DNA from: Dudresnaya verticillata
Lineage: Eukaryota
Reading direction: 5' to 3'
Length of the DNA stretch: 64,000 nucleotides
NCBI GenBank assembly: GCA_977862235.1
Contig: OZ374564.1
Location: forward strand, 1,116,001 to 1,180,000
The notes below the pieces were generated by a model. That model had not been told where the DNA came from. It saw nothing but the letters and a program-made list of their open reading frames with translations, and made no database searches. Numbering within the stretch: the first letter of the stretch is position 1; each line of letters starts with the position of its first letter. Made by a program: the position numbers and the translations under genes. This document shows positions 1 to 29,974 of this stretch, in pieces.

Positions 1-1010
1 CTCCAATTTGTCCTAACCGATAACGGACCGCAGTTTACTGCTGAGTTCTTTGACGCAGTGTGTTCCTTACTCGGAATCAGGCATTTACTTACCGCTGCCT
101 ACCATCCTACCACCTACCGCGACTACCAGTACCTGCAACCGTTGACGTATACATACAACATGCGGGTACACCGTATTACGGAAACACCGCCATTTGATTT
201 GGTGCTGACACGCCACCCATCGGACATTGTTGTACGAGGGGCTCTTGTCGAGCATCAAGAAACCGTTAGGGAAGGGCGTATGACCCCGGTGCTACAGAAG
301 TGGAGCACCATGCGCCGTTTACGGTATGCGCTCCAGACAGCGCGCACTAAGCAAACAGTGGCTCAGCAAAAAGCCAAGGCACTGTTTTACCGTAAGGTGC
401 GCTTTAGGCCTATAATCCGTAACGGAGATCAAGTCTATGTCGACAGGCCGCCCCATAACCTGCGGCCGACCGAACGCCGTGAGCGGGACCGATTGGAAGG
501 CAAACCGGATGATGTGGGCGAGGTGGCTCAAGAAGTGAAGAGACTCCTTCCGAGAGCCACGGGGCCTTATGAAGTGGAATCCGCAACGGAACATGTCGTT
601 ACAATCCGCAAGGAAGGGTTATTGATCCCAGTAAGTATAGATCGCATCACGAAGGTTCCGATCGGAGTTGCAGTTCAGCCGGCACCCTTGACAGTGCCGC
701 CTGTCACGCCATCAACCGTTTACGGAGAAGTAGTGCCACATCCAGAAGGCACTACAGTAGCGCCTACACCGTCAGCGGGCATTACACCCTCCATAGCGGA
801 ACCCCGACAAGCCGATACGGAATATGTGATCGACAAGATTGTCGGTCACCGCGACGAACCTACTGGGATGACATACAAAGTGCGCTGGTATGGTTACCCT
901 CCGGATCAGGACAGTTTTTGAGCCCGCGGAGGAGTTGCCGCGGAATTTCATCTACCGGTATTGGAAGCAAAAGAAAAAGGCATCCGCTAATGGTAAGCCA
1001 TGGAGACGTG
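1..1010 (+). pseudogene. Gypsy integrase C-terminal part with GPY/F motif and chromodomain, frameshifted
   Basis: LTDNGPQF (bases 11-34) and TAAYHP; LPRATGPYEV; EYVIDKIVGHR...YKVRWYGYPPDQDSF. An extra T near 915-919 breaks the frame, which continues as EPAEELPRNFIYRYW. Confidence 0.9.
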
Positions 1011-1511
1011 CTAACCCAACACGTCACTCACCGTAACGGACAATTGGAATGCTAGTGTGTGGGAACGTACAATGTTTATCGCAAGCTAAGGTCGAGGCAT
1101 ATTTCAAAACCGTTAAGGAGATCGTCGAACTGTAACTCTAAGAGTCACGGCGACGCCGCTTCGGAGCAGGGGCAACGGTATCTTCCTCGTTGCCCCCTGA
1201 CCCGTTCGAAAGCCGGGTTCCCCACTCTGATCCGATTAGAATGCACGCTGCGTATTGTCTTCCAAGACGCGAATCACACTATCCATACGCCGACGCTGAC
1301 GACGGACTACTGCGCGGAGATGAATCACCTTCTCCATTAGTCCCTCCGCTAAGGTTGGCGCCTCCTGAACGGATCCTGGCAATGGGAAGCGCTGTGTACG
1401 GCAAATGCCCCGTAGCACCTGTAGCCTGCTTTCCGTAGCGGCTAAGTGAGCCGGAACTGTAACGGTGGGATCCTCATCTTCCTGAAACTCTACCTTCGGG
1501 GATATAAACGG

Positions 1512-2213
1512 CTAATCCCTAACCCCGGCTTCGATTGAGCGCTCCGTTGAGGAAACCACCAATACGGATGGTCCCGACTCGGGTGAAGGTACTTCCTTCC
1601 GCGGAGGTGGGTTTGTGTCCTTCTCTGGAGAGGCTATATCGCTTTTCCGTAACAGTTCAGGACTTGACGCGGGAGCCGAAGGCTTGTCACCAATTACCCC
1701 GGCACTTGGGCGTTTTGGAGCCACTTCCGGTACGGTGATAGGTGCCTCACTCACCACTGGTGTGGGAGTGGGTGCCAACAGCGGAGCACTTGTCGGGGGC
1801 AGTTCGGCGGCTGCAGGCATTTGCGTCGCAGGAGACAGTGCTGCCGGCACAGTAACCGGCGGTGCTTCCGAAACGGTCTGCCCCTTCGAAGCCCCTTTCT
1901 TGGATGGTGCCGCAGGCTTAGGCACCGCAACAATAGGCTCAACCACGTCTATGGGTTTTGGGGTCTTAACCAACACGGGAGTAGTAGTCTCACGATCCAC
2001 ATCGCGCGACGTAAATGTAGCGACCACCGGAAGGACTGGAGCGGCTGTTTTCTCGATATTCGCTGCCATCGGTGCGACGGGCATGACCTCCTCCTGTTCT
2101 TCCAAGAAGGGGCCAGCTTCTTGCTGCCTCACCGTAACGGAATCGCTCGGGTCGATTGCACGCGAACGCCCCGCTGTCTCCTGACAACTCCCCCAATATT
2201 CGGCCCCATCCAA
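1512..2213 (-). CDS. Pro/Ala/Ser/Thr-rich low-complexity tail, probably the frameshifted continuation of the E1 antisense ORF
   Basis: Same strand and directly downstream of 2253-3629. E3 has the same layout (15401-16726). Confidence 0.55.
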   Translation of the reverse strand: MDGAEYWGSCQETAGRSRAIDPSDSVTVRQQEAGPFLEEQEEVMPVAPMAANIEKTAAPVLPVVATFTSRDVDRETTTPVLVKTPKPIDVVEPIVAVPKPAAPSKKGASKGQTVSEAPPVTVPAALSPATQMPAAAELPPTSAPLLAPTPTPVVSEAPITVPEVAPKRPSAGVIGDKPSAPASSPELLRKSDIASPEKDTNPPPRKEVPSPESGPSVLVVSSTERSIEAGVRD

Positions 2214-2252
2214 ACCGTCACGGTACGCATCCCTTGATGCTTGGCGAGGCGC

Positions 2253-3629
2253 TTAACCCCGATGGGGCTGCACCTCTAAGGCGAACCATTCCGGACGCGG
2301 ATATTCTCGATGAAGGAAATATGGCTCACCCACTCCGGGCCTAAGCGGGGGCACCGATAGGACACGGTCCTCATCCCAACTATACCCCAAGAAGCCCGGA
2401 GTGCGTTGCCAATCCTGCTGTCCGTGTACGGATAAAAGACACTCAACCCGATGAAGAGGATACGCCGACCCCGTCACCAAATCGGTTACGCCGACTTGGC
2501 GAATTAGGGCGATCACCGTCACGGGAAGTTGAAAAATACGGCCACAGTCTCCTCCGCGTAGGTCAGCTTCGTCACGCTGGAAGCAGTGCCAGTCGGATAA
2601 CTTGGTATTGCACCGCACTCCGTAGTAGGCAACCTGGAGCCACGAAAATAGCACCAGCATTGCCCACTCCGATCTGAAGATGCTCCAAAGCACGTCGAGT
2701 TGATCTTGGATCGGGGGACGCTCTCCGTTCGGATGTTCGTGATTCCACTCCCGCTCCGGGAGCAGGTTCGCAGAGAAGTACGCCACCACAGAAGGCGTGG
2801 GCACGGATAACCAACGAGTTACCTCGTATCTATCCCACCACGACGGAGCTGTGAGGTAGAGCTCACGTCGCATCTGATACGGAAGGTGGAAGAACTCCTT
2901 GGTATTCCACAGTTGCAAGATGGGTGCCCCCATATGCATTCCGTCTCGATAACGCGTCCGCAATCGGTGTTCCGTCGCCGCGTCGTCTTTCCACCCGTCG
3001 GCATAGCGGAACCAATACACCGACTGGTCATGCGGTGGGTCGAAGCAGATAAACTGCACCCCGATCGGTGCACCCCGTAGACGGAACGCCTTGGCCAACA
3101 AACGGCTCACCTTCGCGGTATACACAACTTCTCCGTGGCCGTGGCAACGGTACCACAACAAATCCGAAACGGTAGTGGTGCGTTCCTGGCAGTAGCTGTG
3201 CACCCATCGGCTTTGCCACACAAACGCCCGCCGGTTCGGCACGAAACCAATTCGCTGGTTTGCCTTGAAGGGCTGCTCCGAAACGGCTTGGTATCGTCGC
3301 GCTTCCAAAACGGTTGGGTAACCCTCGATGAAGTATGACACTGTCATCGGTGGTGTCACCTTCGCCCGTTCCGAATCGGATCTCGTCGGGCGCCCCGCAC
3401 GGTGCTCAAAATGGTGCCCCGGCCAGTATCCGCTCGGGACAGGACCCTCACCGGTACGGGTACGCGCCATCGGCATCCAAGAGCCTGTCGTAGGCGTCAT
3501 GCTCCACACTGGCACGCGCGACCGTTTCGGAGTGCTGCCTGACGCATATGGGCTCGCGCCCATGTTCCGCATCGGAGTTGAGACTAGGATCGATGGCGTC
3601 CGTAACGGAATCGATGGTAGGTCCGCCAA
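2253..3629 (-). CDS. Antisense ORF of E1, unknown Trp/Pro-rich domain (458 aa); probable true start is the ATG at 3978 via a frameshift near 3670
   Basis: Long open frame opposite to pol, between integrase and PPT. Motifs align with ORFs 14613-15488 and 48696-49595. Confidence 0.7.
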   Translation of the reverse strand: MADLPSIPLRTPSILVSTPMRNMGASPYASGSTPKRSRVPVWSMTPTTGSWMPMARTRTGEGPVPSGYWPGHHFEHRAGRPTRSDSERAKVTPPMTVSYFIEGYPTVLEARRYQAVSEQPFKANQRIGFVPNRRAFVWQSRWVHSYCQERTTTVSDLLWYRCHGHGEVVYTAKVSRLLAKAFRLRGAPIGVQFICFDPPHDQSVYWFRYADGWKDDAATEHRLRTRYRDGMHMGAPILQLWNTKEFFHLPYQMRRELYLTAPSWWDRYEVTRWLSVPTPSVVAYFSANLLPEREWNHEHPNGERPPIQDQLDVLWSIFRSEWAMLVLFSWLQVAYYGVRCNTKLSDWHCFQRDEADLRGGDCGRIFQLPVTVIALIRQVGVTDLVTGSAYPLHRVECLLSVHGQQDWQRTPGFLGYSWDEDRVLSVPPLRPGVGEPYFLHREYPRPEWFALEVQPHRG

Positions 3630-4298
3630 GTTGAGCTCCTCAGCACCACGTCGGACCTCCTCGTCATCATCCTTGGTCGAATCTTCTCCGTGACGGTGGG
3701 TCGCCGCATTCCCTAACTGGGTGTTCCTTGCGGCTGGGCCAGCAGCAAACGGATTCGGATCGTAGACAGACCAGCCGCGGCCCGCCGAGAGTATCTGTGA
3801 CGGTTACGCTGCGGTAACGCCCGTGCGACCACTCGTCGTGCGTGGTACCACAACCGCCGAGGACGAGGCCTGCGCTTGAGTCGAAGCATCTGTAACCGTA
3901 GGCGCACCTGGCGCTCTCGTCGTCTAGCTCGCGCGGGAACGCCGTTTCGGTTGAAGGCTTGCTCTTCTCCCCTGCCATCTTGGAAGCGGGCGCACGAAGG
4001 AGAAGGAAAAGTTGAGGAAGATAGCCGTATCGGTTGTGTGTGGGTGTGGAAGCAAAGGTAATCCGTGACGGTGGGCGCCCGAAGACGTGGCGCCATCTTA
4101 AGGAGGGGGGTCTGTGGTGAAGTGAGCCGTAGCGCGCATGCCGCACGCCGACGGCGAGCCAACCGTAACGGCTGATGTGGCAATACGTCACGCTGACGAT
4201 ATGGCAACGTGTAGCCGTGTCGGATGTGTGTGCGTATGTATTGCTGTACGCTGGTACGCATTGCTGTACAGCAGTGTAGCGCACCAACCATACCGGAG

Positions 4299-4306
4299 TA
4301 TTTATA
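4299..4306 (-). promoter_or_regulatory. Candidate TATA box for the E1 antisense gene
   Basis: TATAAATA on the minus strand, in a locally AT-rich patch about 320 bp upstream of the ATG at 3978. Confidence 0.35.
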
Positions 4307-5134
4307 GTATTTATTCCTTATTTTTAGTGAGTCTGTGTACAGTGTGTAGAGTAGCGCGCCAGCCAATGAGAATGCTGCGCATCTCCGTGTCGGAGATTGG
4401 GACCAGCAGGGCCGATTCCGCCATAGGACCAGACCAGTAGGGTCTGGCCCCCACGGACCGGACCGCTCGGTACCACCCTGACTTGTATATCAGCGCGACA
4501 CCGCAGCGGCTCCTAAGGTAAACGGTAAAGCAACCTTAGCCCAATCCTTTACGGTTTTCCCCGCGCCAAGCCCGTTGCGGTCTACCACCACCACCGTTAC
4601 GGATTCCATTCCGGCACTTGTACCACCCCCTTGTCTGTTGCTTCCCAATATCCGTCTCGGTTAGCCGCTCGCTGTTCTCCCGTTTCGGTGCGAACTGCTC
4701 TACCACCCCGTGGAGGTAGTGTTGCTCTCGTCCGTTAAGGAAAGTCAGGCCAGCTGTCCGTCTCGGCGTTCGTGGGTTTTCACTACACCACACGTTCGGT
4801 GCGCCGACGCCGGGAAGCAGACACACGTTGAACTACATCGCGGTGCACTTCCTCGAGCGCCTCCTGAAGCCTAGAAACTTCAAGAGGCTGTTTAGCACGC
4901 ACCTCACCAAGCGTTGACAGTTCCGTATGCTTCTCTAGCGGCAAAGCTGTAATACAGTGAAGGGCTTACAGAAGTGGGCCCTCTGCCCTCGTGTATGCGC
5001 TGAAATATCGTTACCTATAGGGCGCCAACAGGGACAAGACGGGTAGTCTCTGAATGGTCCAAGTGTCACCCTGTAGGTCAGTAGCTTAGTATCTGTCGAT
5101 TTAGTTTAGAAATTATAGCTTAGGATAGGGGGAG

Positions 5135-5466
5135 TGTATATAGCCCAGTATGAGGTGTGCTGCCTGACAGTCGGAGTACCATATAGGGGTATCACCCGTA
5201 GCGGTCCCTGTACAGTAAAGGTAAGCACCTTCCGGCCCCAACTACGTCTCCAAGCCATCGGCACCGCAGCACACCTGTCACCCGTGCCCGGTTAACCGCC
5301 CGCCCAGTGAACTACCTTCAGTATCGTGCTTCCAATCAGGTTACGCGCCCTAGTCTACCCTCTGGGTTCCTCCCACTCTACCACCGCTACCAGTTACCCG
5401 CTCTGTGGCTTTCTCATTGAGTGCACTCTTTGAGTTCACAAGAGACCTAAAAGGTACTTCCTTACA
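5135..5466 (+). repeat. 3' LTR of E1, preceded by PPT AGGATAGGGGGAG (5122-5134)
   Basis: TG...CA ends, adjacent purine tract, sharp junction with the E2 integrase at 5467. Confidence 0.75.
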
Positions 5467-8400
5467 AAAGCGCGTAGAAGCGGTCTTTTCGGAGCGATGC
5501 CTGTCATAACTTGCAATGGACAGCGGAAGACCAAGGGCTGATCCTTCTTGACCGGGCCGAGGCGTTTAAGAGGTGCCTGATTCAGGACGCTCTGTACACA
5601 TTCAGTTACTGCTGGCCAGTCTTTAGGGGCTAGCTTCCATTCCGAGAGGAGTGCAGTTACGGCCCGTTTCACCTCTCTACATACGCGCTCCACTGTCCCA
5701 TTAGACCAGGGAGAATAGGGCGTCGTAAAGTGGCGCTGCACATGGATGTGGTATAACGAAGTCCACGGTAATGCGGGGAAGTCTCGCACTGTAAGGAATG
5801 GCCTCGGAGCCTAACGAATGGCCTCGTAGCCTAACGGAGAAACGAAAAGGGGTGGTAGCGTGGTAGAGCGGAGCAACCAACACGAAGGACCACGGTGTCA
5901 ACGTATTCGTGTGCGGAAGGGAGAACTCGAGCGATCGATCACCGGGGATGACTCCGGGTGCGCGGGGCTATCGAAAGCGAGGCTCGACCGTATCCTCGGT
6001 CACGAAGACGAAGACACCGAACTCCAAGAAACAGGCGTTTACCGAAGACTCCGAGGTCCGGGCGCTAGTTGCTTACCGGAAATCCTCGGAGGTTGTGCCA
6101 GACGACTGGCTAATTAATACTACGTGAGCACGAATACACGTCAACGCGGGAGACGGTTCGTACTCGAATGATTTGTAACGGCCTCGGTGCCAACGAACGG
6201 TCGTCTCACGTATGGTGGCGGTTACGAAGTGCGCCAGCGATGCATACGGAGGTGCACACGCTTCGTGGGCCTCGGTGCCGTTACGCGCGGGAAACAACGG
6301 GAAAGTCACGAAGGAGTCAGCGATTTCGTATCGGGTGCGCACTGTAATGCGAATGCCATCGTGGCGCGCGCACAGTATGCGCACTGTAATACGTTTGCCA
6401 TCGTGGCGTGCGCATTCACGGAGTCACTTCGAAATTCGTATTTCTCGATCATTTTCACGTAGACCACGGAGTCGTTTCGCGCACAGCGTCTATACCACAA
6501 TGGAACTCGTCCGTTAAGTGTTTGACGAGCCAGTTGAGGAAGTGCGATCCCTGATCGCTCACTAACCAATCCATGGATCCAAAGGTAGCAATCCACATGG
6601 ATAAGGTTTTGGCAGCAGCCGAAGCATCTGCAGCGGATGCGGGGAATAGCCAAACATAGGAAGACAAGTCGTCACGCATGAGGAGCAGGTACTTGAGCTG
6701 CTAAGTGCTCTCGTCCATGTACAAAACTTCCACATGCAACACCTCGTTCGGCTTTGAGCCATGTAGAGCGTGGGAAAGAGGACGTGGAACGAACTTTCCG
6801 GATCTGTTGATGAGGCAGTGCAAGCACAATCTCACGAAGGTGGAGACTTCCAGTTTCAAGTTTTCCCACCAGAACTGCTCCCGAAGGATGCTCTCAGTGG
6901 CGTCTTGGCCCCGATGGCCCACCATTCCGGCGTATGACCCCACTAGAATACGCAACTTAAGGTCCTGCTCCACTTCAGGGATCCAGATTCTTCTTTCCAC
7001 GCGCCATAGCCCATCTTCATCGGATAGCTTGGCTGTATTCGGGGGAAGGTGATGTTTTAGGGCGTTCCGAATGGTCTCCCACTCGGGCCAGATGACCTCA
7101 TTCAACCTGGAATGAGCTGTGGAAGATGCTTAACGAGACCAAAAAGCGCCTTTAGAGCCTTGGGCTCGGTGCGATACCCTCGTAACCATCGGGTGAGGAC
7201 ATCCGCGAACACATTCTTGGCTCCGTCAATATGCTCGATCACATAACTGAACCTAGAGAGGTACAGTGCCCAACACTGTACCTTCGACACGACATGGCGC
7301 CGCAGCCCGGGGTCTAGTGCGAGCGGAGCAAACACGAAGAGTACGTTGCGATGGTCCGTGAAAACGTGGGCTTCCTGCGCACCAAGGAAGAGGTAGTCCA
7401 GCCTTGAGAATGCTTGGAAGATGGCGAAGCCTTCCTTCTCGAAGGTAATCCAGCGTTTTTCGGCTTTCTTAAACTCCGCACCTAACAATGCCAACGGTTC
7501 GTGCTGCTGTTCCTCGAAGGGCACCTTGAGCTGTCCAGGGTCTGCCTGTGTTACGACCGAAGACCAGAACCGGTCGGACGCGTCGGTGAAGACGCAAAGT
7601 GTCATTTCAGGCTTTGGGTGTGCCATTTTAACGGCTTGTTACAGCGTGTCTTGTATGTCACGGAACGCGTCAGCATGAATAGCGCCAAAAGACAGGGTGC
7701 ATAAGCGGATTCCCCAGATGGATCGAGTTTTGCAGCGGCCTGGTTTGGCGTATGCCTTTTCCAACAAGGCTTTCAATGGTGCCATCCGCTGAGGAAGGAG
7801 CGGGATGGCCTGTAACATCCTTTGGCAGCATTACAGGAACTGGGCGAGTTCATCCGCGGTTTCTGGAAGGGCCATAGACCGTATAGCGGAAAATCGAGCT
7901 GGATCCATCTCGTAACCATCGGCTGAGATGATGCGGCGGCACCATCTAACGCGACGAGTGAAGCATGTGCACTTTCGGGCGGAAAGGTACAAGTTTTGTT
8001 CTTCACAGATGGCAAAGCAGCGCGCAAGCAAGCGTAGCAAAGCCATCTCATCCGTGGCGTGGAGTGTGACGTCATCCAGCCACGCCTTCAGATTGTCTCG
8101 AAGGTCCTGGAAGAGCGGTTCAATCGAGCTCGGGAAATACGCCGTGGCATCGGTCAGGCCAGGTAACACCCGAGTGGACGAAATTACACCGCGAGGCGTG
8201 ACAATGCCAGAGGCATCGTAGGAGTCTGGGTGAAGTGGGAGCTGCCAGTACGCCGAAAAGAAGTCCAAAACGGCAAAAGACTTGCTGTCAACGACGTCAC
8301 GCAGTTCAGATTCGAGGTGGGGCATCGGCCAGGATTCTTTGACCGTGGCGGCATTGACTGGTCGCAAATCAATGGCCAGACGATACTTTGGGCGAGATCC

Positions 8401-10355
8401 TGGCTTGGGCACCAAGAGTGGTGCCGCTTGCCACGTAAGGGTTTGGCACCGCAAACCCAAGCTCAATCAGCTTGTTGACATACTTGTCGAGAAACGTACG
8501 GTGTTGTGGCGAATACCGTCGAGCTCTCACCCTAACGGCTCGCTTTCCTTCAAAGAGCCGCACCCACATGGGTTTAGCCTTGGCTGATGGGGTTTTTCCC
8601 AGCCTTAGTCGAAAATCGACTTGTGTTTGGCAATCAGTTGCTGCAACGTCCGGGCACCCTCCTCGGATAGCCCTTCAGCGCGAGCAGATTCAACTGTAGC
8701 AGAGAGAGCTGAATCCAGCGCCTCTTGCGAGTCCTCGCATAAGTCAATTTATACATCACTCTCGTCGAACGGGTCCACATCGTCACTGCCTCCTTGGCTG
8801 TGATGGGTCGAACCGTGTAGGTTCCTTACGCCGAGTAGTGAAGCAATTAGGCTCGAAGGGCGCTTACCGTTCTTACGAACGTCTGCGTCTAGGATATCCG
8901 GGACAAATACGCCTCCGTTATGGCGATCAAAAGCGGCTTGTAGTAGCACGCGATTGTCAATGCCGAGGGAGCGCAGGACAGGTCGACCAATAATGACGTG
9001 AGACATCGCTTGGTCACTCACAAGCCACTTCATGCCGCGAAGGAGCAATTGTGACCCATGGCGGATTCGCAGGCGCACATCAGCGTCTATGGTGCGGCGG
9101 CACACCAGCGGGGAAGCATTCTGGTCCGCCATCTCGAACCTATCCGGTGTAGTAAGATCTGTGGGCTTCAAATTCGGAGTCGCATGCAGGAGTTCCTTCA
9201 GCACGATCGGCGGGATAACGTTCTCATCGGCACCGGGGTCGGCTAGTACGGTAGTCTCTACAGCCCCATTAAGGAAAGTAGCGCTGAAGAGGGTACTCTC
9301 AATGTCTTTTCCCTCACTGATCAGGTTCATAACTCTCTTTCCACCCTGCGCTTTTTGTTGCGCACATACTCCTCCATAAGTTGCTTCTTCAGTGCTTCTG
9401 ACGTTATGGGGCAATCCTTGACCAGGTGTTTCTGCTTGCGGTCAGGGTTCAGACAGTCTGACAGGCTGTCGTGAGACGATGATGCGGCCTTAGTCGCCGG
9501 AGGAGGGTTTTTGCGCTTCTTTGCACCCTTCTTACCGGCTTTTTCCTTCTTCTTCCGAATGGTTTTGCGATCGGATTCGCGCCGAGCCTCAGAAGAGTCT
9601 TAGTCGCTGCCGGAGTCTGCACGAGACTGTGATAACTCACTTCGTTTAACCTCTTTTGCCATCTTGGCCAGCTCCCTCATGAAACGGCCGTAGTCCTTCT
9701 TGTCAAACCCTTCGTTTTTACGCCACGCGATGAGCTCCTTCATCTTCTGACGTAGACGAAGAGGTTGCACACGTTATATAATGTGCTTAACAGCTACATG
9801 TGGGCGCTCTTTGGGAAGGGCGACAATACCAGATGGCTCCAGAGCAGTACGACAAGACAAACTGAGTGACCAAACTCGACTCTCTGGCTTCTGAATGGAC
9901 ATATCCATTCGTACGTCCTTGATGGCAGCTTGCACGCGCGAGAAGTCATGGTCATCGTCGGGATCGGCCTTAGCCCGCTCTTCTACGCACTGGCGGATCT
10001 GTTCCTCGGTTATCGAGTCCAAATCCTCAGCCACAATCCACTGCTCTAACAAGAACTCCTCTAAGAGGGCGTCGTCCAACGAGTTGCGATACGAAGTTAG
10101 CGGAACGTTGACTCCCGCTTCTGAGTTCTTCTCTGCCACTCTCTTTTCGTAGAGCTGGCGTTTCTTCTTGAACGCGACGAAGGCGGACGTACTGACAGCC
10201 TTAAGAATGGGTGCTTCCCAAGTTTCGACAATTGTCTGCTTGACTGTGTCCTCTCCAGCAGCCCGAGTTTTTGGAGCCATTGCGCCTTTTCCTGGCAGAA
10301 CTTTTCGACCAAAAGTAATTACTGTGGCGATCTGCGGGTCGTGATGCTGGTCCAC
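5467..10355 (-). mobile_element. Decayed Ty3/Gypsy element E2 (gag-PR-RT-RH-INT)
   Basis: gag 9449-10355; protease LADPGADENVI (8749-9414); RT LDFFSAYWQ and AWLDD (7831-8466); RNase H TDASD, EKE and FTDHRN (7102-7626); integrase HRG...CLHC, VSDQGSHF and PWSNGTVER. Many frameshifts. Confidence 0.92.
5747..6499. mobile_element. Solo LTR (753 bp) inserted in the E2 integrase
   Basis: Ends TGTGGTATA...TATACCACA with 5-bp TSD ATGGA (5742-5746 and 6500-6504). Removing it rejoins LTDEFH|VQRHFTTPYS. Near-identical copy at 63199-64000. Confidence 0.93.
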
Positions 10356-11061
10356 GCAAACACGGGTTCGAGGCGAAAGCGAGGGGCGGGGCTACACACT
10401 CTGCGACGGTGATCGTCCGTGAGGGTGTTGCCTCTTTTTCTCTAACCTACTGAAAAGCGGATGGCCGGCCGGCCGCCGGCCCAGGCCGGCGACATTGGCC
10501 CGGCTCAAGTTTTGTCGCGAGGGGTGTGACTCCCGTGACACTCTAGGGCAGATAGTTTTGCCGTAATATCTGCGAAGGTGGTTCAGCGGGCGCCCAAGTG
10601 CGGGCGCATCGATTTCGCGGCAAGCAGGAATCCTCGAAAAAGTAAAGACTAAAGTACAAGCTGCGTCCGAAAACGCATGCTTATTGTGAGTGTGTACCCT
10701 AGGGTAGAGGTGCACCGAACACAACTCGCTGCCTGGCGCCCCGTAGGGACGCCTGTAACGGGCGTGACCCCGGTGAATGCACCGTGCCGAGTACGATTGT
10801 GCTGCGGGCTCAGCGTTACAAAGGTGGCGTTACCTGGGGTGATTGTGGCAGGCCCCTATTTCCGGGGCAGGGCACGATCGAGACTATTCTTTTTGTCCAA
10901 TTTCTCCACCAACAAGTAGCAAACGAAGGTGTATCATAATACGTGACTTGCGCATGCCAGCTGTGCCTTGGTGAAACGGCGCAGGAACGGTATGAAAAAT
11001 AGGGTAAAGTTTTGGACTTACTGGTTGACTGTTAGGGCAGCTCGAGGTTCTTGTTTCGGCG

Positions 11062-11595
11062 TGTGGTATAACAAGCGCTGGGGCGCTGTAAGGAGACACG
11101 TGTACACGCGACACCTGTAAGGCGTGGGACACAGGAGTGAGATGGCTGCTTGCCATTGGACAATTAATTACGTGAGCACTATGCGCGCTGAGTGGTGGAT
11201 ACGCACCATGATTTTACGCCTACTTTGTGTGCGGCGTCTTACAGTGACGCCGTACGTACGGAAGCGGTATGACCGCTCATTCCTATTTTTAATCGCTAGT
11301 GTAACTGTTAGTGTACAGTATTAGCTCACTGTTAGCATTATACAGTAACCCTAACTGAGCGGGTAGTATCTTTCCGGCTCCCGCCGTATTTATTAGGCCC
11401 CTGAGTAGCAGGGGCCCGCACTAAACGGGCAGCGGTGTGTGCGTTGGGCTTTTCTCCCTTCGTTGGACTCTCACGGTATCACCGCCACAACCGCTACAAC
11501 CCCCGTTAGGCGTTTACAAGCCGTGCTACCTACGACGACTGCTCTAAGCCGTACGGTTCGCCTTCCCTTTTCCCCCTCTTTTTGCAGGGCTTGCA
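11062..11595 (+). repeat. Truncated LTR related to 11596-12372 and 58194-58884
   Basis: Starts TGTGGTATA and shares the TATTTATT..GCCCCTGAGTAGCAGGGG block. Interrupted by the next LTR. Confidence 0.65.
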
Positions 11596-12372
11596 TGTGG
11601 AAGAATGAGCCGCAGCAGAAGTGCTAGCGCACTGTAAGTCATATGTGCGTATTAAGGTGTAAGACGCCCACTCGTCTCAAGCTGTAAGGCGCGCACAAGC
11701 GCCGTGCGCTGTAAGGATGATGCGCCCCGCTGGCATCCCTGCTGGCACCACATTTCATGGCGAATTGCCATTGGGTAATTTATTGTGGCCGCTCACGCGG
11801 CCCGACGCGGTACTACCACTAATCCGTATTTATAACTGACAACAGTACTATTAGATTAATAATTACAGCTAGAGTAGCTTAGAATAGCTCATAGGAGGTA
11901 AGAGCAATTCCGGCTCTGCCATACTTAATAGGCCCTTGAGTAGCAGGGGCCTCCTGAATAGAACCCAACTGTGGGTTTGGGTCTTTTTCCCTTTTCTGGA
12001 ATTCACGGACTCACCGTACCTTTCTCCCTTTCAGGCGCTCTGCGAGCCTATTCTCCGCGCGACGGAAGCTCTGCGCGAGCTGGGTAGCGCCGCCCCTCCC
12101 TTTTCCCCTTTTTCCTAGGCTTTGCGGCTTTTTCCCAAGTCTCTACCAACACCCCTTTTTCCCCCGAGCTACCGAAGCTAGTGTTGCCCATAGGACAGGT
12201 GTCCTGGTTGTCTCCGTTCTACCTGGCCCCGTGGCCATTCTACTACATTGCAGCCCTCTCAAGTATCTACCACCCCTTTTGGAGCTACCAACCACGCGAG
12301 TGGGATCACGCTTTCAGGACAGCTGTCGTGCTGTGTGGCCGTCTACTCTGGCTTGAAAGCCATTCTACTACA
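11596..12372 (+). repeat. 5' LTR of a truncated + strand LTR element
   Basis: TGTGG...CTACTACA, homologous end-to-end with 58194-58884, followed by PBS-like TGGTCTCCCGACCTAGG. Leader sequence runs to 13074. Confidence 0.8.
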
Positions 12373-12373
12373 G

Positions 12374-20900: not shown

Positions 20901-22450
20901 CGCACTTGGTCAACTTCAATGTTACCCCGGCCCGATGCAAGGTCGAAAGGATCTCGTCAACGTGACGGAAGTGACTGTCCATGTCGTTAGAGAAGATGAT
21001 CACATCGTCAAGGTAGACGAGCATGAGCGCCACTTGTAACCAGCCAGTAAGATATCAAGGGTCCGTTGAAACGTAGCCGGCGCGTTAATAAGCCCGAAGG
21101 GCATACGCTTGTAGCGGAACAACCCGGCATGGCACGTGAACGCCGTCTTGTCGCGATCCCGCGGGTTGATGAGCACCTACCAGTAACCACTATTGCAGTG
21201 TAGGGTAGTGAAGACGTTTGCTTCCCCTAGACTTTCAATATATTCGTCGATTCGCGGAGAGGGTACGTGTCTACCGTCACCGCGTTCAAGCGACGGTAGT
21301 CGACGCAGAAGCGGAGTGTACCTTCCTTCTTGGGAGCAAAGACGACCGGCGACGCACATGGCGACTGTGCGGGTTCGATAACGCCCTGAAGCAGCATGCG
21401 ATCCACCTCCGCTTGGGCGAGTTGCCTTTGCTTTGGGCCAGCGCGATAGGGCAGGGATGAAATCGACCTGGAGCCGGGGAGCAAGTCAATATAGTGCTCC
21501 GTGGTTGCGATTTCTCCTAATGAACCGTCCCACATCGACGAGTACCTGCGAAGCATCTCCTTCAGCCATCCTTGATGTTCGGCTGAGAGATGACTCAGGT
21601 CCAACTCGTCCACTGACGGAGGTTTTTGCTACAGTTGCTTCGATCGACTTAGCGAATGTATCCGGCTGTGCCGTTACTCCATCATTATTTTGAAAACGGA
21701 AATCTTGATTCGCCTCTTCCTCCGTTGCCTGCTCCTCGGTGATACCTAGGACATCGGCCAGACTTATGTGACTGGGGAACACTGCTGTGGGATGTGGCAA
21801 CGCAGTAGCGATGACTTGTCCTTTGACGAGCGCCTGCGGACGCGGGGAAACGTTTGCGACGAGAATCCGGAACGCTCTCAGCGGCCCTACCGGAGCGACC
21901 CCGTTAGTAATGGCCAAAGCTTGCCGATCATATACCGTTCCAAACAGCGGGATGGTAATGACCCCTGCTCGTTCGGTCGTTACCGAGATCCAATTTTGCG
22001 CCTGTGTCGGGATGATCGTTCGTTTCGCAACGCGTATCTTGGGCGCCGTTTGCCCTCCGGCCGTGCCGTACTCTTGTTCCGTTGGCAACGGGGGTACGAC
22101 GGGGGCCGGCGCGGCGGGAGGCGCGTTATAGGGACGCGGGTCCCGTCGTCCAACTCAATCTCGCGACTCCGCGGATAAATGGCTTCGACAAAGCGGTCGC
22201 AAAAGTCGCAACCGAGTATAACCGGCGCAGCGAGTCGTTCGCAAACGATTAACTCCAACTTGACAGCCCTTCCTCCGATACATACGACTAATTACATGGT
22301 GCCTTCGGTTTGAAACGCCTTGTTATTGGCGTCTAATATTACAGGAAGACTCTTGGATACGATCCGTGGTCGCACTTCTATTGGAATGTCGTCAATACGA
22401 ATGAAATTCGGACCAGCCACGTGTCGATCACAGTACTTTTATGTTCCAAT
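17939..22450 (-). pseudogene. E3 pol (protease-RT-RNase H-integrase-chromodomain), multiple frameshifts
   Basis: VIDT/AGPNF near 22430; SPVVFAPKKEGTLRFCVDYRRLN; VYLDDV; ERNYSVSEKECLA; ERFNRTI; EYVIERVESH...YRVKWFGY...TWEP. Confidence 0.92.
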
Positions 22451-25400
22451 GTACTAACAGTTGCGCTCAAGTAGGCGTATACCTTTTAGTTACTTTTGGC
22501 CATTACGAACAAGTGTCCCCGTCCTCGCGGGGTTGGTACCTTCGCCAGGGGCGCTTTAACGACGCCTGTGACGAATATATCCGCCCTTTAGCGTGTTCAT
22601 TGACTAGCTTCGGGCCCTCCTTCGGTGTTAACACCCCAGACGGAGGTCTCTCGTTATGTTGTGACACTCCAGTGTCAGGATTCAGTACCATAGCTAGTTT
22701 TTCGCCTCTGGCGGTTGTTGCTGCGCTATGCAGGGATTGATCACTTTCGGGTGGCGTTCTGCCGCATGCGGCATTGGTCCGCCTCGTGGCGATTGTGGTC
22801 GTGCAGCACGGCGGATCGAGTCGTGAGTCGCGCGTTCCTTGACACGGGTGTCCGCGTCAGCTGGGACTGCGGCCTTCTCTGCGTCCGTTAGGCATTCATA
22901 GTTGGTAATCACATTCATGAAGTTGCTCATGCGGAGGAAGCAGTCTCGCGCGATGTGTCCGCGGGCGTAAAACTGGTGAGAGATTAGCTGTCGGTGCGCG
23001 TCTTGACGGAATGGACCCCGTTCCTGCCATCCTGGCCTTGCCTGGTGGACCTGTGGGGCATACCCCGAGTATGGAACACGTGGCGCGGGTACTACCGAAC
23101 GCCGAAAAGCGAGAGAGGGATACAGGTCTTGCTCATCTTCGTCCTCGACGTAATTGTACATTGGCAATGCGGAGGTCGGGACCGAAGCCTGCTCATCGGC
23201 TAAGTATAGATCGCCATCGGCGTATGTTTTTATGTCATCGTGTCGATGACTAGCGAAACTCGGCAGAAGACGCCGCTATCATAGCGCGCGCTGTTGACCT
23301 TGCGCATTCCGTCAGTTGAAGGAGTGCCGTTCGGGTAACGCCCACGGCGGATCGTGGGACACTGGCGTCTTGGGCTAGTACTATAATGTCCCATCGGGTT
23401 GACGCCGAGCTGGAATTGCCACGTCGTTCTCGGTTGGCGTCCCCTTCGTCCTACGTGAAGTAGAATAGCCTCCCGAACGACAATTCCGCCCTCGGCGTTT
23501 CTTCGTGGAAGCGAGCCAAGAGAGACATTATCGTTGGGTCGAGCCCGTCGATGTATAAGGTCATCTTTCCCAATCAGGTCATACGTTACCGCAATGAATG
23601 CACGCTCCGGCTAACCGTACCCCATAGGCCATTTCTTCCACGCCTTGCCTTTGCGGTGTCGAGCGGATTGAATGAATAGCAGTTGCGTACGTAAGAAGGC
23701 TGTACTATAACGCCTCCGGATACGAAGATACTCCACGACAGTGGCACGTTGACATCGACTTGACGGAGCGGAACTGCGTCGCCTCTGTACCTCGAAAGAA
23801 GTACGGTAGCGCGCCGCACGCCTGCGCCTCTCTCATCTCGAGCGTGTCGGCCTCATGCGCAAATCGCGTTAAGAACTCGAGGACAAAAACTGGGTCGTGT
23901 CCATTGAAGGCATCGTTCTGCAACGTTAACTCTAGACGCTTAATGTGGTCCTTGGCCTTGTCTGTCTCGCGTCTGGAGCGTGTCTGTCCCACTTCACTCA
24001 GACGATACGATCGGTATGACAGCAGTTGTTCGAGCAGGGGGTTGGAGGGGCATAGCTCCTTCAGCCATTTGTACGCTTTCCGCGAGATTCTACGGCATTG
24101 CCGTTGGTTGGCCGACCGACATCTTCAGACGATGGGTCCGATGCGTTTTCGTCACTTAACGTATGTGACGATGGAGATGACGAATCCCCAGGTCGATGAA
24201 GTTCCTTCTTCCGTCCTCGACGTGCCTTGCGGCCGCCTTGTTTCTTGCGATCCCTACGCCGACGGCGAAAGTCTTCATCTGAGCTATCTACTTCAGATGG
24301 TGGTCCATTGTGCCACTTGGCGGTTTCGAGTCGCTCGAAGGGGGCGGCTAAGCTGGAGAAACGCTCCCAGGTACTGCGGTCCGAGCGGATATGGGTTGAC
24401 CCGTACCCCGCTTCGTCAGTACATGGTCAAGGTCGGAGCGGAGCCCTTGAAGGCCCCGTCGCGATCTTCCTCCGAAGTCTGAAGACGGCTAAAGATTCCT
24501 CCGATACTGCCGTCTAGTATTTAGGCGACCCGAGCGAGCAGCGCATCGTCTTCAAGGACGAATACCTCTCGGATACGCGTGGTATCGTTAAGTTACTCAC
24601 GCGAACGGCGGTGGGTGACCCCGTTGGCGGTTGACGTGCGGGGGTTGATCTGTTGGCCGACCCCTCAGCGCTTCGACGTGGCGAATTCGGCTTAGCTGGC
24701 GAACAAACGGCACTGCCGTAGGGTGTGGGGCAACATGCCCCAGGTATTGGTGAATCGTCAACAATGTTGCGCTCCGCAGAGCGCCCTTGTTCGTCATTGA
24801 CGGGGATAGATGGTTGGTTTTCTGGACGTTCCGGTTATCTCACGACGGTCTCGGCTTGTCTTTCGTCTTCGGCGCGCTGTTGCTGGGCTTGTACTGTGTC
24901 AGCAGAGTTAACGTATGAGTGATAGGTGCGGAGGGCCGATCCCTCGGTGACTGAGGTACGGACGACAACAGGGATCCCTGTTGGTGGCGGAGGTAACTCT
25001 CCCTCGTTGTTCGAAGCGTGGGTGCCGTCGTGGTCGTGGCTCAGGGGTAACGTCGGGAAGGCCGACGCAATCTCTGTGCTCATGACCCGCCCATATCCTG
25101 TTTTCTTAGCTGGATACGACCGCTCCGACGCGGGGAGACTCGGCGTCGATGGTGGGCGTCTTGAACTGGGGCCTCTCGTAGTTGGCGGTCTGGAGGCCAT
25201 GATACAATCGTAGATCTGCTTGAACACCGTGGACGATTAGTGACACCATCAGATGATGGATTTTCTGACTTCGCACGACGGTAGAGCTCGTTGAAACATA
25301 ACGCTACTTCTAGGCCGGGATATCAGATGTAGTGCAAACGTCCTGGACGAAACACCGCCGAGGAGTTCGGGGCTCGGTGGGTAACGACGCCTTCGGCGGT

Positions 25401-25903
25401 GAGTAGCCACACCTTAGGCCGTAGTTGTAGAGCGATGGACGACGCCTTGGGCGGACTATTAACGACGTAGGCGGAAAGGAAAAACAAAAGAAGACAAAAT
25501 AAAACACGTCAACAACGGGGGCAGATCGTGGAAGCACGGAGAGGTAGCCGCATGAGCCTTGAGGCCAGCGGTTAGGTACGCGTGGCCCGGAAGGGCTAGT
25601 CTGTACCAAAGCCGGCTTGCTCTGGTTTACTCCAACGTTCTAGACGGGGTACCTATTTACCATTAGTAGCACGGATGCCGAGGGCGTCGCGCAAGAACTC
25701 AGGACACTTGTTGCGCTGTAGTGCGTCTAACAGATCTGCCGCGCGGTGCAGCGACGCATCCGACAGGCTTGTGCCACACGTCCTATACAGTTGCTTACAC
25801 ATACAAGTGGCCACGCGCCCCTTACAGGTGCGGGCGCGTGACAACGTGGGTGATCTCGATCCTAATCCGGATCCGCATCAGTATCACGAGTGCGCCGTTA
25901 TTA

Positions 25904-27975
25904 CAGCAATCCCTTGATTCAAGGAATGGCACGATGGAACAGAGGGGATTTCTTATAGCAAGTTGTTTCGTATTTGAGGAATCACCTTTATTTTCTGAAA
26001 TATGAGGAATCACCTTTATTTTCTGAAATATGACTTGTTTGGCCCATGCCTCGAACTTCTGCAAGTTTTAGCTCCAGTCGCAATGCACGTAATTGCGATA
26101 ACAACTAGGGATTCATGACCGGCTGCCTCTCGCATATGCCAATGACCTTGCCAACTGCATCAATCTTACCGGTTATTGGCATTGGCTCCTCTATAGGGTC
26201 AGCGGCAGTATCCGGGCTTTCCGTCTCTACATCCTCCAGATTATTCACTATCGTCTGTTCGAGGCCCTCGTCTCCAACTTCCTCCAAAATTTTGGTATCA
26301 TCCTCATTTAGCGAACTATTGATAGAAATGCGTCTGACAGTTCCCACAAGACATGAAACGACTGATTCTAACGCTTCAGTATCTTCTTCAGTTCGTCTTC
26401 TAAAATCAGCATCAGCCCCATTCCCAGCTGTTATTACCAGGCCGGTATACTTCCAGCAATTGCTTATCACATGGTGTGGAACCTCATTTCATATAGATTT
26501 ACACACTTCATGGCTGTGAGCTGGTCAATTTTGTATATGTTTCCAGAACTGTCGTCAACGTAGTCTATTGCCCTGTTTTCTTGTACGGTACGGTATTTGC
26601 GCTTCAGGGAAGCAATGATACCAGAATCCATCGGCTGTAACTTGGAAGTAGAGCTAGCAGGCAAAAGAACTATCCCAACAGACTCCAGCAGAGGCATGCA
26701 ACCATCCGACCCATGCCCAGAGAAAGTTTCCAGAAACAAAACCACCCTGCTTCCTGGTCTCTGCTGAATGTATTTGTCGAATCGCTTGAGCCATTCGAAA
26801 AATATCTGCAACGTCATCCACGCTTTCTTGTTGGAACTGTAGTCAAATCCTAGCTCTTTCCTTTCCCGAACGCTTTTGAAAACATCGTGGTACCTTTTCG
26901 TTCCCAAGGAATAGGAGGGGAACTTTTTGTGCCATCTGCGTTAGCGCAAACCAGCAAAGTAAGCCTACGCTTATCTTTGTTTCTTCCAGGTACAGCCGCA
27001 GTTGAAATTTTGCGATCCGGAGCCATTGCGTAGCTTAATCCCGTTTTGTCTGCATTCCAGATATCGGCGTGGTGGTAGTCATTGCATATCGATTGGAGCA
27101 ATAGTACTTGGGTTCTTATTGCGTCGGTATCAGCATCAACGCTCTCCCCATGCAGTTTCCTAGCCTCCAGGTTCCAATGATGTCGAAATTTCCACAGCCA
27201 ACCATTGGTAAACTTGAGTGATATCTCCCGCTTTCTGGGAAGTAAAGCGTTGACTTCAGAGAGCAGCCGTGTCGTGTTGACTCTGATCATGTCTCCATAT
27301 ATGAAGTTCCTAAGCTGGTTCTGATCATTAATCCAATGGACCAGACCAGCCTTGATGGCAGGTTGCGCCTGTGTTCTGGACCTTTTTGCATTATTTGGTG
27401 AGATGGGAGCTGCTAGTGATGATCTAGAGGAGAGCCTAGAATTTACCGGACGTAAAGGTGTGAAGGGAAGACGGAGGCTTTCCTGTGCCCACTCTGGAAG
27501 GTGCTGAAATCGGATCAACTCCGCGTTCTGTCTTGGTCGCCTGATTTCCTTTTGGATTTCAATGCGGTGTTTGTTGGTCAAGCATTTCCGCATCGTAATA
27601 ATGGAGAATGATGGTTGCATGTAAATTGAGCTTCACATTGCCACCGTTGTATATTACAGAGGTTTCTACAGAGATGTACAAAGCACGCTTCTATTATCAA
27701 GAGCATGACCCTTTGCATGTAAAGTGGGTACATTACGGGTACAACAGGTCACCTACGAAGAGGACCGTTTCTTGCTCAGTAATATGCTGTTCATAAAGGT
27801 ATTGAAACTTAAGGCTGTTCAGAACCGTTCCCGTTTGAGATTTCTTATAACGCGGAAGGAAGGAATGTACAATGGAAGTACTAATGAAGGTCACGAGTAT
27901 GGTGGACGGCAAAACGTTCCTTGTGTGCGTCAAGGGATTCCTTCCATGAGCGGTCCTTGAATCAAGGGATTACTG
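25904..27975 (-). mobile_element. pogo/Tigger-like Tc1/mariner DNA transposon (2072 bp)
   Basis: TIRs CAGCAATCCCTTGATTCAAGGA / TCCTTGAATCAAGGGATTACTG, TA target duplication on both sides. Confidence 0.93.
26105..27620 (-). pseudogene. pogo-family transposase (CENP-B-type HTH plus DDE), frameshifted
   Basis: KFTNGWLWKF, LHGES, IWNADKTGL, KKAWMT, LFLETFSGH and LQPMDSGII spread over three frames. Confidence 0.9.
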
Positions 27976-29974
27976 TACAGGCACAACGCATTACATCACC
28001 ATGGATCCTGATGCTCGATCTCGATCCCGGATCTAGATCCGATCTAGGTCCGGGCCGTCCATACAGACCCGTATCCTTACAGAATCGTTAATCCCAATGT
28101 CCATCCGGATCGCGTCATGGCTGGCATACGGCGCCTCGGAGTCCACTTGTACCGCTGTACAGTAGCGCTGCGTGCGCGCGTGAGCCGCAGAACGCGATTT
28201 ACGTACGCGGGTTAGCCGTCCATACGTCTACGACGTGTTCGCGCCTACGTTGGGTGAGCGCACCACTGGCGATATCATTGGTTGACGCTGTCGTTAAAAC
28301 CCGCTCAGAGCGAACAAAAGCCAGGTCCCCCTTTGCACCACAGGAAACACAACAAGCAACCGGCCTACGATGGTTCTTCCCCCTTGTTGTTTTGGGCTTC
28401 TTTCCCATTCTTTCGCCCTACGACTTTCCCTTATCCGTCTAGGCTCCCCTTTCCTTCCTTACCGTCGGTTTCGTGCCGCTCCACGACGGGGACGCTGGAA
28501 TCCGGCCGCTGCTGCCCGCGTACGGTCCACTCCGTGCGCGCTTCGGCTTCGACGCCGTAGATCGGCGACCGTCGACGGCATGCGCGGCCGACACCACCGC
28601 TCTTGAACTACAGCTACCACCACCCATGGACGGATCTGGGTGCGACTCCGAAAACAGCTAGCATAGACGCTCGGTTCCATCAGACGTCTATGCCACCGTT
28701 ACACGGGTACAGCGGGAGCGTCCGTTAGCGCTTACAGCGTATCATGCCATCATGGCATAAATCTCCATTGTGCAACAGCACGCCATCTGCAATGCGCTGC
28801 AGGTCATGAGCTGTGCACTTCATCACAATGGGCGTATATACAGCCTAGCCTACTAGCTAAAATGAGGGCTTTTTACCGAACCCTCGGAGTTTCAAATAAA
28901 AGTATCTAGATGGGAGCTCCAGGAACGGTTACTGTATATTAAAGGTAAGAACGTAGGTAGCTTCCCGCCCCAATTACGTCTACATCCACCGGCACCGCTG
29001 TAGAGCCGTCGCCCTTGCCGGTTAACTGTCCGCTCTGTGAATTACGTTCAGTAGCTTGCTTCCATTGCTTACATCTAGTCCGCTGGGTGGATCTGGCCCT
29101 GCTGGTCCCAGTCACTTTTGCGGACATGCTCGGCATTCTTATTGGCCGGCAATACACAACTTACTGAACAGAATAATTACAGTTACCTAATTAAAAATAA
29201 ATCAACTACTTGGTTCCGATTGGTGGGCGCCGCAGGTTCCAGAAAGGCATACAGTGCTACTGTGCCGCTGCACTCCGCTTCGGCTTTGGGCGTGAGCGCA
29301 CCGCTGCGCCGGTCGCGAGTTGGCTTAACCGTCGTCGGGACTCCCCAACGGCCACTTCACCACATACTCTACCACTGCTACCAGGTACCTTCTTGTCGGT
29401 CGAGACGGGGGGTCGATCCGGCGAAGTGGTTCTGTAGGGCCACAGTTGCGGACCGATGCGGTCCTTGTATGATAACCGGCCCGCTCCTGCGCTATCTGCT
29501 GCGCGGATGGGTCAATCGCACGCGAGGGCCGCGTCGTGTTGCGCTGAAGCGTTCGATGGCGCGTTTGCGGCGGCGGAGGTGGAGAAAATTTGTTTACTTT
29601 ACTGTGTTGGTGGTCTTACTTTGTGCCGGGTTCGTTCCGCTAGTTAGCTCTACGTTGTCTTAAGTAGGTCTAGGTAGTAGTAAAAGTATAACGCCTAGCG
29701 TAGCTAAAGTGGCCTAAACGTAACGCTAAACGCAGGTGCTACCCAAAAAAGGGCTCTAGTAGTACTAAAAAGGAAGGTTTTGTCTAAGCGAACTAGCCTA
29801 ATGCGGTGACCCCTTGGGTGGTCTGGCCCCACTAAATCAGGGTTTGGGCCCCATCCTGCTACCCAGGGGCGGCCGCGCAGCACTACAGCGGTGCTGTGTA
29901 CCTATCGCTTTTTGGGTGGACTAGTCCATTTGATCCACCTCACAAGAGGTCCAGAACTGGACAGACCGACACTG

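Follow-up and report, generated by a model that had tools for sequence, protein, structure and literature searches.

Does a mobile element mark its own DNA for a protein that it also encodes? This question is raised by two Gypsy-type long terminal repeat (LTR) retrotransposons, E1 and E3, in the genome of Dudresnaya verticillata. Both lie in a stretch of 64,000 nucleotides (GenBank assembly GCA_977862235.1, contig OZ374564.1, positions 1,116,001 to 1,180,000 of the forward strand), hereafter the window, which is a stack of decayed mobile elements. Each element carries an accessory gene in antisense orientation and many copies of a short CG-based motif, hereafter its tag. The two genes are homologous, the tags are specific to their elements, and the tags have been under selection inside coding sequence. 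By analogy, we tentatively favor a self-marking system resembling that of the VANC proteins but built on an unrelated protein, in which the antisense product would bind the tag of its own element and likely keep its copies active. The features of E1 and E3 are as follows.

1-990, + strand: C-terminal part of the E1 integrase and chromodomain (open frame 1-918, chromodomain end after a stop codon; tblastx and tblastn matches)
417-4766, no strand: E1 tag field, 34 sites (integrase 3, spacer 3, antisense gene 17, upstream of the gene 2, LTR 9)
1512-3978, - strand: E1 antisense accessory gene, broken (main frame 2256-3803, in-frame stop 2253-2255, upstream piece in another frame, Pro/Ala/Ser-rich tail)
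4113-4792, + strand: E1 3' LTR, recognized from its sequence, with a polypurine tract directly before it (4101-4112)
13075-13997, - strand: E3 3' LTR, with 11 hairpin-type sites and a polypurine tract at 13998-14009
13075-25900, no strand: E3 tag field, 129 sites (3-base loop 92, 4-base loop 37) at a density near one per 100 bases, across LTRs, antisense gene, spacer, pol and gag
14104-14440, no strand: densest E3 cluster, upstream of the antisense gene, with 11 sites mostly 23-27 bases apart and largely alternating between CGCC and CGTC
14565-16726, + strand: E3 antisense accessory gene, broken (frames 14565-15485 and 15287-16723, frame change near 15350-15380, start not fixed)
17942-22506, - strand: E3 pol (reverse transcriptase, RNase H, integrase, chromodomain), continuous, with several frame changes and stops
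25328-28342, - strand: E3 5' LTR, interrupted by a pogo-type transposon; identity to the 3' LTR about 75%

Two chromodomain Gypsy elements and their antisense genes

E1 is represented in the window by the 3' end of a + strand Gypsy element, namely integrase, polypurine tract and 3' LTR. The Pfam matches of its frame 1-918 to rve (E = 4e-4) and Chromo (E = 3e-5, 24.1 bits) lie below the Pfam cut-off because the sequence is truncated. In E3, reverse transcriptase, RNase H and integrase follow one another in the Ty3/Gypsy order between LTRs with TG...CA ends, together with a polypurine tract; the protease region was seen by tblastn only. The E3 chromodomain (PF00385) matched with E = 1.7e-9 and 37.9 bits, against a cut-off of 25.1, and its position at the integrase C-terminus in both elements makes them chromovirus-like. 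PF00385 is also carried by many pol relatives; among the 120 listed of the 185 relatives found, those with an organism given came from Chondrus crispus (4) and Agarophyton chilense (1), in keeping with a florideophyte red alga as the likely host. Because its LTRs are only about 75% identical and no target-site duplication is evident around them, E3 is either an old element or a mosaic assembled from subfamilies. The repeat libraries published with red-algal genomes may already include these elements.

Three observations concern the ends of the elements. The LTR ends of E1, of E3 (both LTRs) and of a solo LTR related to E3 share the pattern TGT(G/A)GTG...CAC(C/T)ACA. The polypurine tracts of E1 and E3 are G-rich and resemble each other, even though the two integrases share only about 27% identity. 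Primer-binding sites typically start with TGG, and the start of the corresponding position in E3 (25301-25327) differs from this; no self-priming complement was found in the E3 LTRs.

The initial annotation had proposed that both elements encode a homologous antisense protein between integrase and 3' LTR, and this was borne out. The E1 frames lie at 1515-2252, 2256-3803 and 3670-4317, with the conserved domain at about 2350-3350 and a probable start codon at 3978; in E3, the conserved part lies at 14990-15350, followed by a low-complexity tail to 16723. A direct BLASTP comparison of the two products was marginal (16 of 70 residues identical, E = 0.005). A profile of the database relatives of E1 matched the E3 frame with E = 8.5e-12 among 968 window open reading frame (ORF) pieces, and a third ORF (48510-49592) with E = 2.7e-8, the next match being at 0.019. 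This profile was built from phmmer relatives and seven cluster members, with the window sequences left out; P0020, an insect protein that was offered to it, is probably a false match made through eight short stretches. HHalign gave 96.5% for the E1 family versus E3 over 117 columns and 75.6% versus the third ORF, and one relative, P0034, matched the E3 antisense ORF by tblastn (9e-11). With the E1 core as the phmmer query, 82 relatives were found at E = 0.001 or better. By these sequence comparisons, the E1 and E3 products are remote homologues in one family of about 80 proteins. In a quick tree of 47 rows, from which fragments and near-duplicates were left out, and in which the careful search is unfinished and long branches meet, E3, the third ORF and P0034 stand apart from a majority of E1 type, a majority that reflects the query used. 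The E3 protein lacks an internal segment that is likewise missing in P0034, P0093 and P0057. When 30 relatives were looked up, one cluster proved to be from Gracilariopsis chorda.

AlphaFold2 modeled the E1 core confidently, as a mostly helical domain of about 330 residues (mean predicted local distance difference test score, pLDDT, 85), and Foldseek returned no match at E = 0.001 in the PDB or a viral library. The model of E3 residues 141-260 (pLDDT about 90) has its structural elements in the same order as that of E1. The best VIA-align scores were Z 4.9 for E1 (root-mean-square deviation 4.8, 109 residues aligned) and Z 3.2 for E3 (4.1, 97 aligned); these comparisons used whole-domain models and no library of predicted cellular proteins, and a weak match is no proof of a new fold. 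By sequence, the best PDB match had E = 0.014, and no Pfam family describes the domain (79 members at E = 0.01, 10 members at E = 1). A word-based protein search with the E1 domain confirmed none of 2009 candidates and, with the alignment, returned only five close members; the ESM Atlas held no usable match, and viral contigs, metagenomes and prokaryote genomes yielded no confirmed locus of the family. Full-length members have about 500-1000 residues, consisting of the conserved domain and a low-complexity or coiled tail. Among 26 long homologues, 12 have a basic cluster within their final 25 residues, versus 15 of 156 other tail windows. The arginines conserved in the family (positions 21, 43, 50, 70, 119, 131, 133, 163 and 257) suggest nucleic-acid binding, and no conserved cysteine cluster was found.

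Element-specific tags and selection inside coding sequence

The two palindromic words first noticed, CCGT-N-ACGG in E1 and CGTC-N3-GACG in E3, barely cross between the elements, as had been stated. The former occurs 12 times in the window, ten times in E1, once in E3 (16317) and once at 33573; the latter occurs 25 times, of which 24 are in E3, one is in the related solo LTR and none is in E1. Their excess over order-3 and order-4 Markov backgrounds likewise held (10 versus 0.6-1.5 expected in E1; 23 versus 1.2-1.3 in E3), since none of 200 simulations per order reached the observed counts, and codon-conditioned backgrounds were also exceeded. The words are real but incomplete: they are subsets of CCG-N3-CGG in E1 and of a covarying class, CG-ab-loop-b'a'-CG, in E3, whose commonest member, CGCC-N3-GGCG (35 sites), had been missed.

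In positions 1-4793, CCG-N3-CGG occurs 34 times, versus 4.2-5.5 expected and a maximum of 12 in 200 Markov simulations per order; outside E1 there is one site at 5196, and 25 lie in the remaining 59 kb. Apart from the C/G flank and the spacing of 3 bases, no feature of the site is conspicuous. The spacer ends, mostly T or A, vary independently (13 of 34 paired, 12.8 expected) and the flanks pair at chance (10 versus 10.2). Lacking covariation and with independent spacer ends, the E1 tag looks like a degenerate site for a symmetric dimer. The sites are spaced slightly more evenly than random (P = 0.036). Given the amino acids and codon usage, 3.3 sites were expected in the E1 antisense gene and 16 were found.

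The proposal of a dimeric, sequence-specific site, which suits E1, was not supported as worded for E3, where no fixed dyad word accounts for the tag. In E3, CG-N7-CG occurs 235 times (137 expected), an excess that is due to self-complementary sites, which number 94 of the 235 versus 20.9 after arm shuffling (maximum 39 in 5000 shuffles). Within 13075-25900, the 92 sites with 3-base and 37 with 4-base loops each compare with 8.6 expected. The 4-base-loop class numbered 40 versus 9.8, and 5- and 6-base loops 18 and 14 versus 9. No closing dinucleotide other than CG showed an excess of symmetry in E3. When both arms were drawn from the four commonest halves, they were symmetric in 73 of 81 cases, versus 27.2 under independent halves, and in 52 of 56 versus 17.3 outside the LTRs and the array. 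Independent half-sites are thereby rejected, so something reads the base pairing. The base pair just outside the stem is of Watson-Crick type in only 12 of 129 sites (34.9 expected), whereas non-symmetric CG pairs used as a control gave 64 of 244 versus 62.8. Inner stems are weaker in sites with 4-base loops (36 of 74 bases G or C) than in those with 3-base loops (133 of 184; P = 5e-4). Inner wobble variants are at background (8 versus 5.7; 6 versus 6.4), and outer TG/CA variants are slightly in excess (15 versus 6.4), which may be decay or wobble. On both strands, the inner stem makes no use of G-T wobble and the flank does not avoid it, evidence that leans to DNA. Taken together, these features mark a hairpin of four base pairs that has CG at its base and is under selection; they do not fit an ordinary dimer site. 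No description of such a signal was found in the full-text literature searched, outside which most subscription journals lie.

Several strict homodimers, present or past, each with a half-site of its own (CGCC, CGTC, CGCT or CGGC) and no hairpin, could leave a similar record, especially since few halves dominate the 3-base-loop class (35, 23, 9, 6 and 6 of 92) and E3 may be a mosaic, given the divergence of its LTRs and the absence of an evident target-site duplication. We consider this very unlikely: it does not explain the avoidance of flank pairing, the second loop length with its 11 different stems or the weaker stems on 4-base loops, and all site types are interleaved along one continuous pol.

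The E3 tag, too, lies in coding sequence by synonymous choice. In pol, 20 sites with 3-base and 17 with 4-base loops were found, versus 3.4 and 2.8 expected, and in the antisense gene 19 and 7, versus 3.0 and 2.4, whereas non-symmetric CG pairs in E3 coding sequence were at their codon-conditioned expectation. Internal sites are not copies of one another, as their best flank match was 10.9 of 20 versus 10.5 for random positions. Six of the 11 3' LTR sites have an intact counterpart in the 5' LTR, which in one case differs in loop length; between these LTRs, stems kept 78 of 87 bases, loops 18 of 36 and the background 478 of 641, values that alignment anchoring may inflate. Between the E3 LTR and the solo LTR, stems are not conserved in place (52 of 66, versus 0.74 for the background), and the solo LTR holds 10 sites of its own, mostly at other positions; the class of tag thus persists while positions turn over. 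The cluster at 14104-14440 is possibly a promoter region. No nucleosome-scale or helical periodicity of the tags was detected (best P 0.93-1.0 for 60-260 bases).

These data also bear on whether the tags have no function and arose by mutation, through fold-back template switching during reverse transcription or because paired CpGs are protected from deamination, or else by local repeat expansion. The array-like cluster at 14104-14440 and the slight excess of outer CG to TG/CA variants would agree with such an origin. However, fold-back repair would extend stems outward, where pairing is depleted threefold; E3 stems start only at CG; the internal sites are not copies; stems are conserved between the LTRs while loops vary; and the neighboring Gypsy element E2 shows nothing of the kind. 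We give this explanation the least credence of all.

The remaining elements served as comparisons.

5439-10391, - strand: E2, a distant Gypsy gag-pol (Pfam) without either tag, internal negative control
25904-27975, - strand: pogo/Tigger-like DNA transposon (DDE_1), bounded by terminal inverted repeats, flanked by TA and nested in the E3 5' LTR, negative control
48510-49595, + strand: third and most diverged family member (profile E 2.7e-8, HHalign 75.6%), outside any recognizable Gypsy element
52206 to about 53305-53360, - strand: solo LTR related to E3 (identity to the E3 LTR 74%); its 10 hairpin-type sites mostly occupy other positions

The tags are confined to the gene-bearing E1 and E3 and the E3-related solo LTR. 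Hairpin sites numbered 3 and 2 in E1, versus about 2.5 expected each, and CCG-N3-CGG numbered 11 in E3, versus 7.2-7.7. Per CG, hairpin sites amounted to 1 of 436 in E2, 1 of 81 in the pogo insert and 129 of 1317 in E3; the E2 ORFs held one CCG-N3-CGG versus 0.9 expected. For arm symmetry at CG, E3 reached z scores of 15.5 and 8.8, other window regions at most 5.2. The reverse transcriptase of E2 is about 27-30% identical to the relatives of E3. Around the third homologue, no domain or terminal repeats were found; the family may ride other kinds of mobile DNA, or this copy may have been left behind. Near-perfect hairpins lie upstream of it at 46120-46163, 46701-46744, 47473-47520 and 48250-48285. 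Just outside the E3 3' LTR, 11000-13074 contains eight hairpin-type sites, three of them with a CGGT stem, and resembles 58507-58796 (70%); it may be another LTR family with a related tag.

Selection on the tags could also come from host proteins, either a transcription or chromatin factor or a hairpin binder, with the antisense gene an unrelated passenger. CCG/CGG half-sites are typical of some host dimeric factors, and the third homologue has no tag, both of which fit. Two elements of one genome nevertheless have different tags that barely cross, and the other elements in the window have neither, so that we think host readers quite unlikely.

An attempt to infer the tags of relatives from their protein sequences was underpowered and is not used as evidence. 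For the antisense genes of E1 and E3, the true tags came out first or close to first, but the E3 pol control gave z 1.9 for the whole hairpin class and the tag-less E2 pol gave P = 0.055. A P value of 0.05 was passed by 5 of 30 homologues, with differing motifs, versus 0 of 6 controls; a recurring CCG-N4-CGG may stem from a conserved peptide, and no trend with pol similarity in the expected direction was seen.

What may read the tags

Under the self-marking reading, the antisense gene would encode what is likely a nuclear nucleic-acid-binding protein, which would bind the CG-based tag repeated along its own element and so coat that element; tagged copies would likely be kept active against host silencing, as VANC does for VANDAL. 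In E1, the tag would be read as sequence in duplex DNA (CCG, three bases, CGG). In E3, with its diverged subfamily protein, it would be read as a shape, arising where DNA is locally unwound or on a single strand and made up of a stem of four base pairs whose base is a C-G/G-C step, a loop of 3-4 bases and, below the stem, an unpaired pair. Recognition of symmetry independent of sequence needs paired arms, and the E3 signal is thus most simply a mini-hairpin with the CG step at the junction; additional pairs on the outer side would shift that point and be selected against. Both tags place one CG opposite another within 7-12 bases, and the E1 and E3 proteins are far apart on the quick tree, as their tags differ.

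Several points weigh against self-marking. The pairing of gene and tag is seen in only two elements, and no tag accompanies the third homologue (hairpin sites 0 and 1, versus 0.5 and 0.1 expected; no CCG-N3-CGG). The missing tag of E2 is informative only if E2 has no such gene, and its 3' end, the expected place for the gene, is outside the window. The observed/expected CpG ratio is 1.11 and 1.26 in the tagged elements and 1.03 in E2, with no depletion in any; because the tag-less E2 is also undepleted, the CpG level says nothing for anti-silencing. In the E3 protein, the alignment is limited to the C-terminal half of the domain. Across 45 cores of the conserved domain, the mean net charge was +1.6 and hence only slightly basic; given this near-neutral core and the conserved acidic residues, the protein may instead be an enzyme. 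A duplex word in E1 and a hairpin in E3 require a changed binding mode within one family, and a 4-bp cruciform arm is not expected to extrude unaided. When each gene is read on its sense strand, loops lean toward A (A:T 29:26 for the antisense gene versus 40:76 for gag-pol; P = 0.03, post hoc), a hint of RNA or transcription-linked reading. Finally, the VANDAL motifs (YAGTATTAY, AGTTGTCC/AGTTGTAC) are, as far as that source describes them, non-palindromic, mainly non-coding and spread as tandem repeats, whereas the tags here are symmetric and in coding sequence (PMC5735166). Our preference for self-marking stays tentative because there are only two elements, the third homologue is untagged, and the evidence on the choice between DNA and RNA points both ways.

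That choice leads to an alternative in which the tags are single-strand signals of the retrotransposition cycle, that is, landing sites on genomic RNA or cDNA for Gag, reverse transcriptase, integrase or an accessory protein during packaging, export or copying. Covariation, variable loop length and the trade-off with stem strength in E3 are hairpin properties; single sites are predicted to fold (-2.1 to -4.1 kcal/mol as DNA); the sites span the whole transcribed length; and the A lean of the loops follows the sense strands. Against this, no loop word is present (GNRA in 1 and 2 of 37 on the two strands, UNCG in 0 and 3 of 37), wobble use has no strand bias, and the E1 tag does not covary. In a 60-base context, moreover, pairing probability exceeds 0.5 in 40% of sites as RNA, versus 56-59% as DNA. 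On this evidence, single-strand signals appear somewhat unlikely. An apparent strand bias of GNA loops (1 versus 9) was discarded, as column frequencies explain it (2.1 and 9.3 expected).

Returning to self-marking, its most specific form goes further: a protein with a new fold recognizes its own element by a private tag, and in E3 this is a protein-stabilized DNA mini-hairpin with CG at the junction, placed every 100 bases by synonymous codons, the whole being a VANC-independent anti-silencing system that reads shape. From the sequence evidence, we judge this form doubtful and on the whole unlikely; if true, it would be a system of retrotransposon self-recognition and anti-silencing independent of VANC. 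Whatever its reader, the E3 signal, with 129 strictly paired 4-bp stems with a CG base and an unpaired flank, reaching inside pol, is unusual, and the protein domain, about 330 residues long, modeled with confidence, lacking any fold match and distributed across red-algal mobile DNA, is itself a target. In the sources consulted, the function of antisense genes between pol and the 3' LTR of Gypsy elements is stated to be unknown (PMC7264820; PMC11963269). In E1 and E3, the gene is accompanied by a candidate target with sharp statistical support, which makes it possible to ask by experiment which tag is bound by which protein, and whether in the form of duplex DNA, hairpin DNA or RNA. As for the host context, red-algal repeats carry methylation and H3K27me3 (PMC8566409; PMC9861306), which fits the self-marking reading, and for red seaweeds the control of transposons by chromatin has been called unexplored (bioRxiv 10.1101/2025.02.11.637652).

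The rest of the window contains further repeats. Long Pfam-negative ORFs occupy both strands of 36000-45500, and the - strand ORF 41896-42594 may resemble a CACTA/Plavaka-type transposase. Local motif excesses were found for TCG-N2-CGA at 40-44 kb (10 versus 1.3) and GCA-N2-TGC at 44-48 kb (11 versus 1.7). A young repeat with a 90-base tandem unit is present in three copies 92-94% identical (5778-6502, 57424-57831 and 63196-64000), one within the E2 integrase and one after the reverse transcriptase-bearing ORF 61784-63211; it is probably the end or a derivative of a long interspersed nuclear element. Short pieces at 28900-29300 resemble the E1 LTR (4358-4433, inverted) and 5202-5334, and are probably another LTR remnant. 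On the - strand, 32600-33950 holds further, AT-richer retroelement remnants with a weak aspartyl protease match and integrase-like text, and includes the CCGT-N-ACGG at 33573.

Comparison with known systems

The packaging signals of single-stranded RNA viruses are many small, degenerate stem-loops along the genome, including its coding regions; they are specific to one strand and contain a loop motif. E3, but not E1, resembles them in having covarying stems distributed over its length; the E3 hairpins appear to differ in being defined by their stems, without a loop sequence, and nearly symmetric between strands. An extra gene of unknown function is also carried by a fungal Gypsy element, brtn of BcGypsy1 in Botrytis, according to the part of the report consulted (bioRxiv 10.1101/2021.04.13.439636).

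Closer in arrangement are the antisense ORFs of Retand/Tat elements (TRP28, PF04195; GENE23 of Grande), which occupy the same position and orientation between pol and the 3' LTR, and for which a nuclear or DNA-binding role has been proposed, with family-specific repeats in that interval (PMC11963269; PMC7264820). Those are non-chromovirus elements of flowering plants, whereas E1 and E3 have a chromodomain; the passages of these sources that we compared do not mention a cognate dispersed motif (PMC11963269; PMC7264820). TRP28 (PF04195) had no match in our family.

The Plant Mobile Domain (PMD) modules of MAIN, MAIL1 and MAIL2 likewise join a transposon-related domain to a short motif, acting against Polycomb silencing, and PMD-A versions are described as retrotransposon-encoded (bioRxiv 10.1101/2024.09.27.615353; PMC13547354). 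They differ in that, in these accounts, the modules were shown for Arabidopsis host genes, and the family described here has no PMD match in Pfam. According to the same two sources, VANC itself is traced to MAIN-like PMD proteins. A DUF1985 or PMD-like Pfam match was found in none of 79 family members at E = 0.01 and none of 10 at E = 1. No match to a VANC- or PMD-like fold was listed, the presence of a VANC structure in the compared library being not established; an unpublished structure of VANC21 is mentioned in a meeting report (PMC8756742).

VANDALs are Mutator-like DNA transposons of eudicots (Arabidopsis), whereas E1 and E3 are LTR retrotransposons; for VANC, binding and demethylation have been shown, while the E1/E3 system is known from its sequence (PMC5735166). 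As far as that account goes, the likeness between the two lies in the design: an element-borne accessory protein with a conserved domain and a variable tail, together with a short motif that is dense in its own family, rare in relatives and different between families (PMC5735166).

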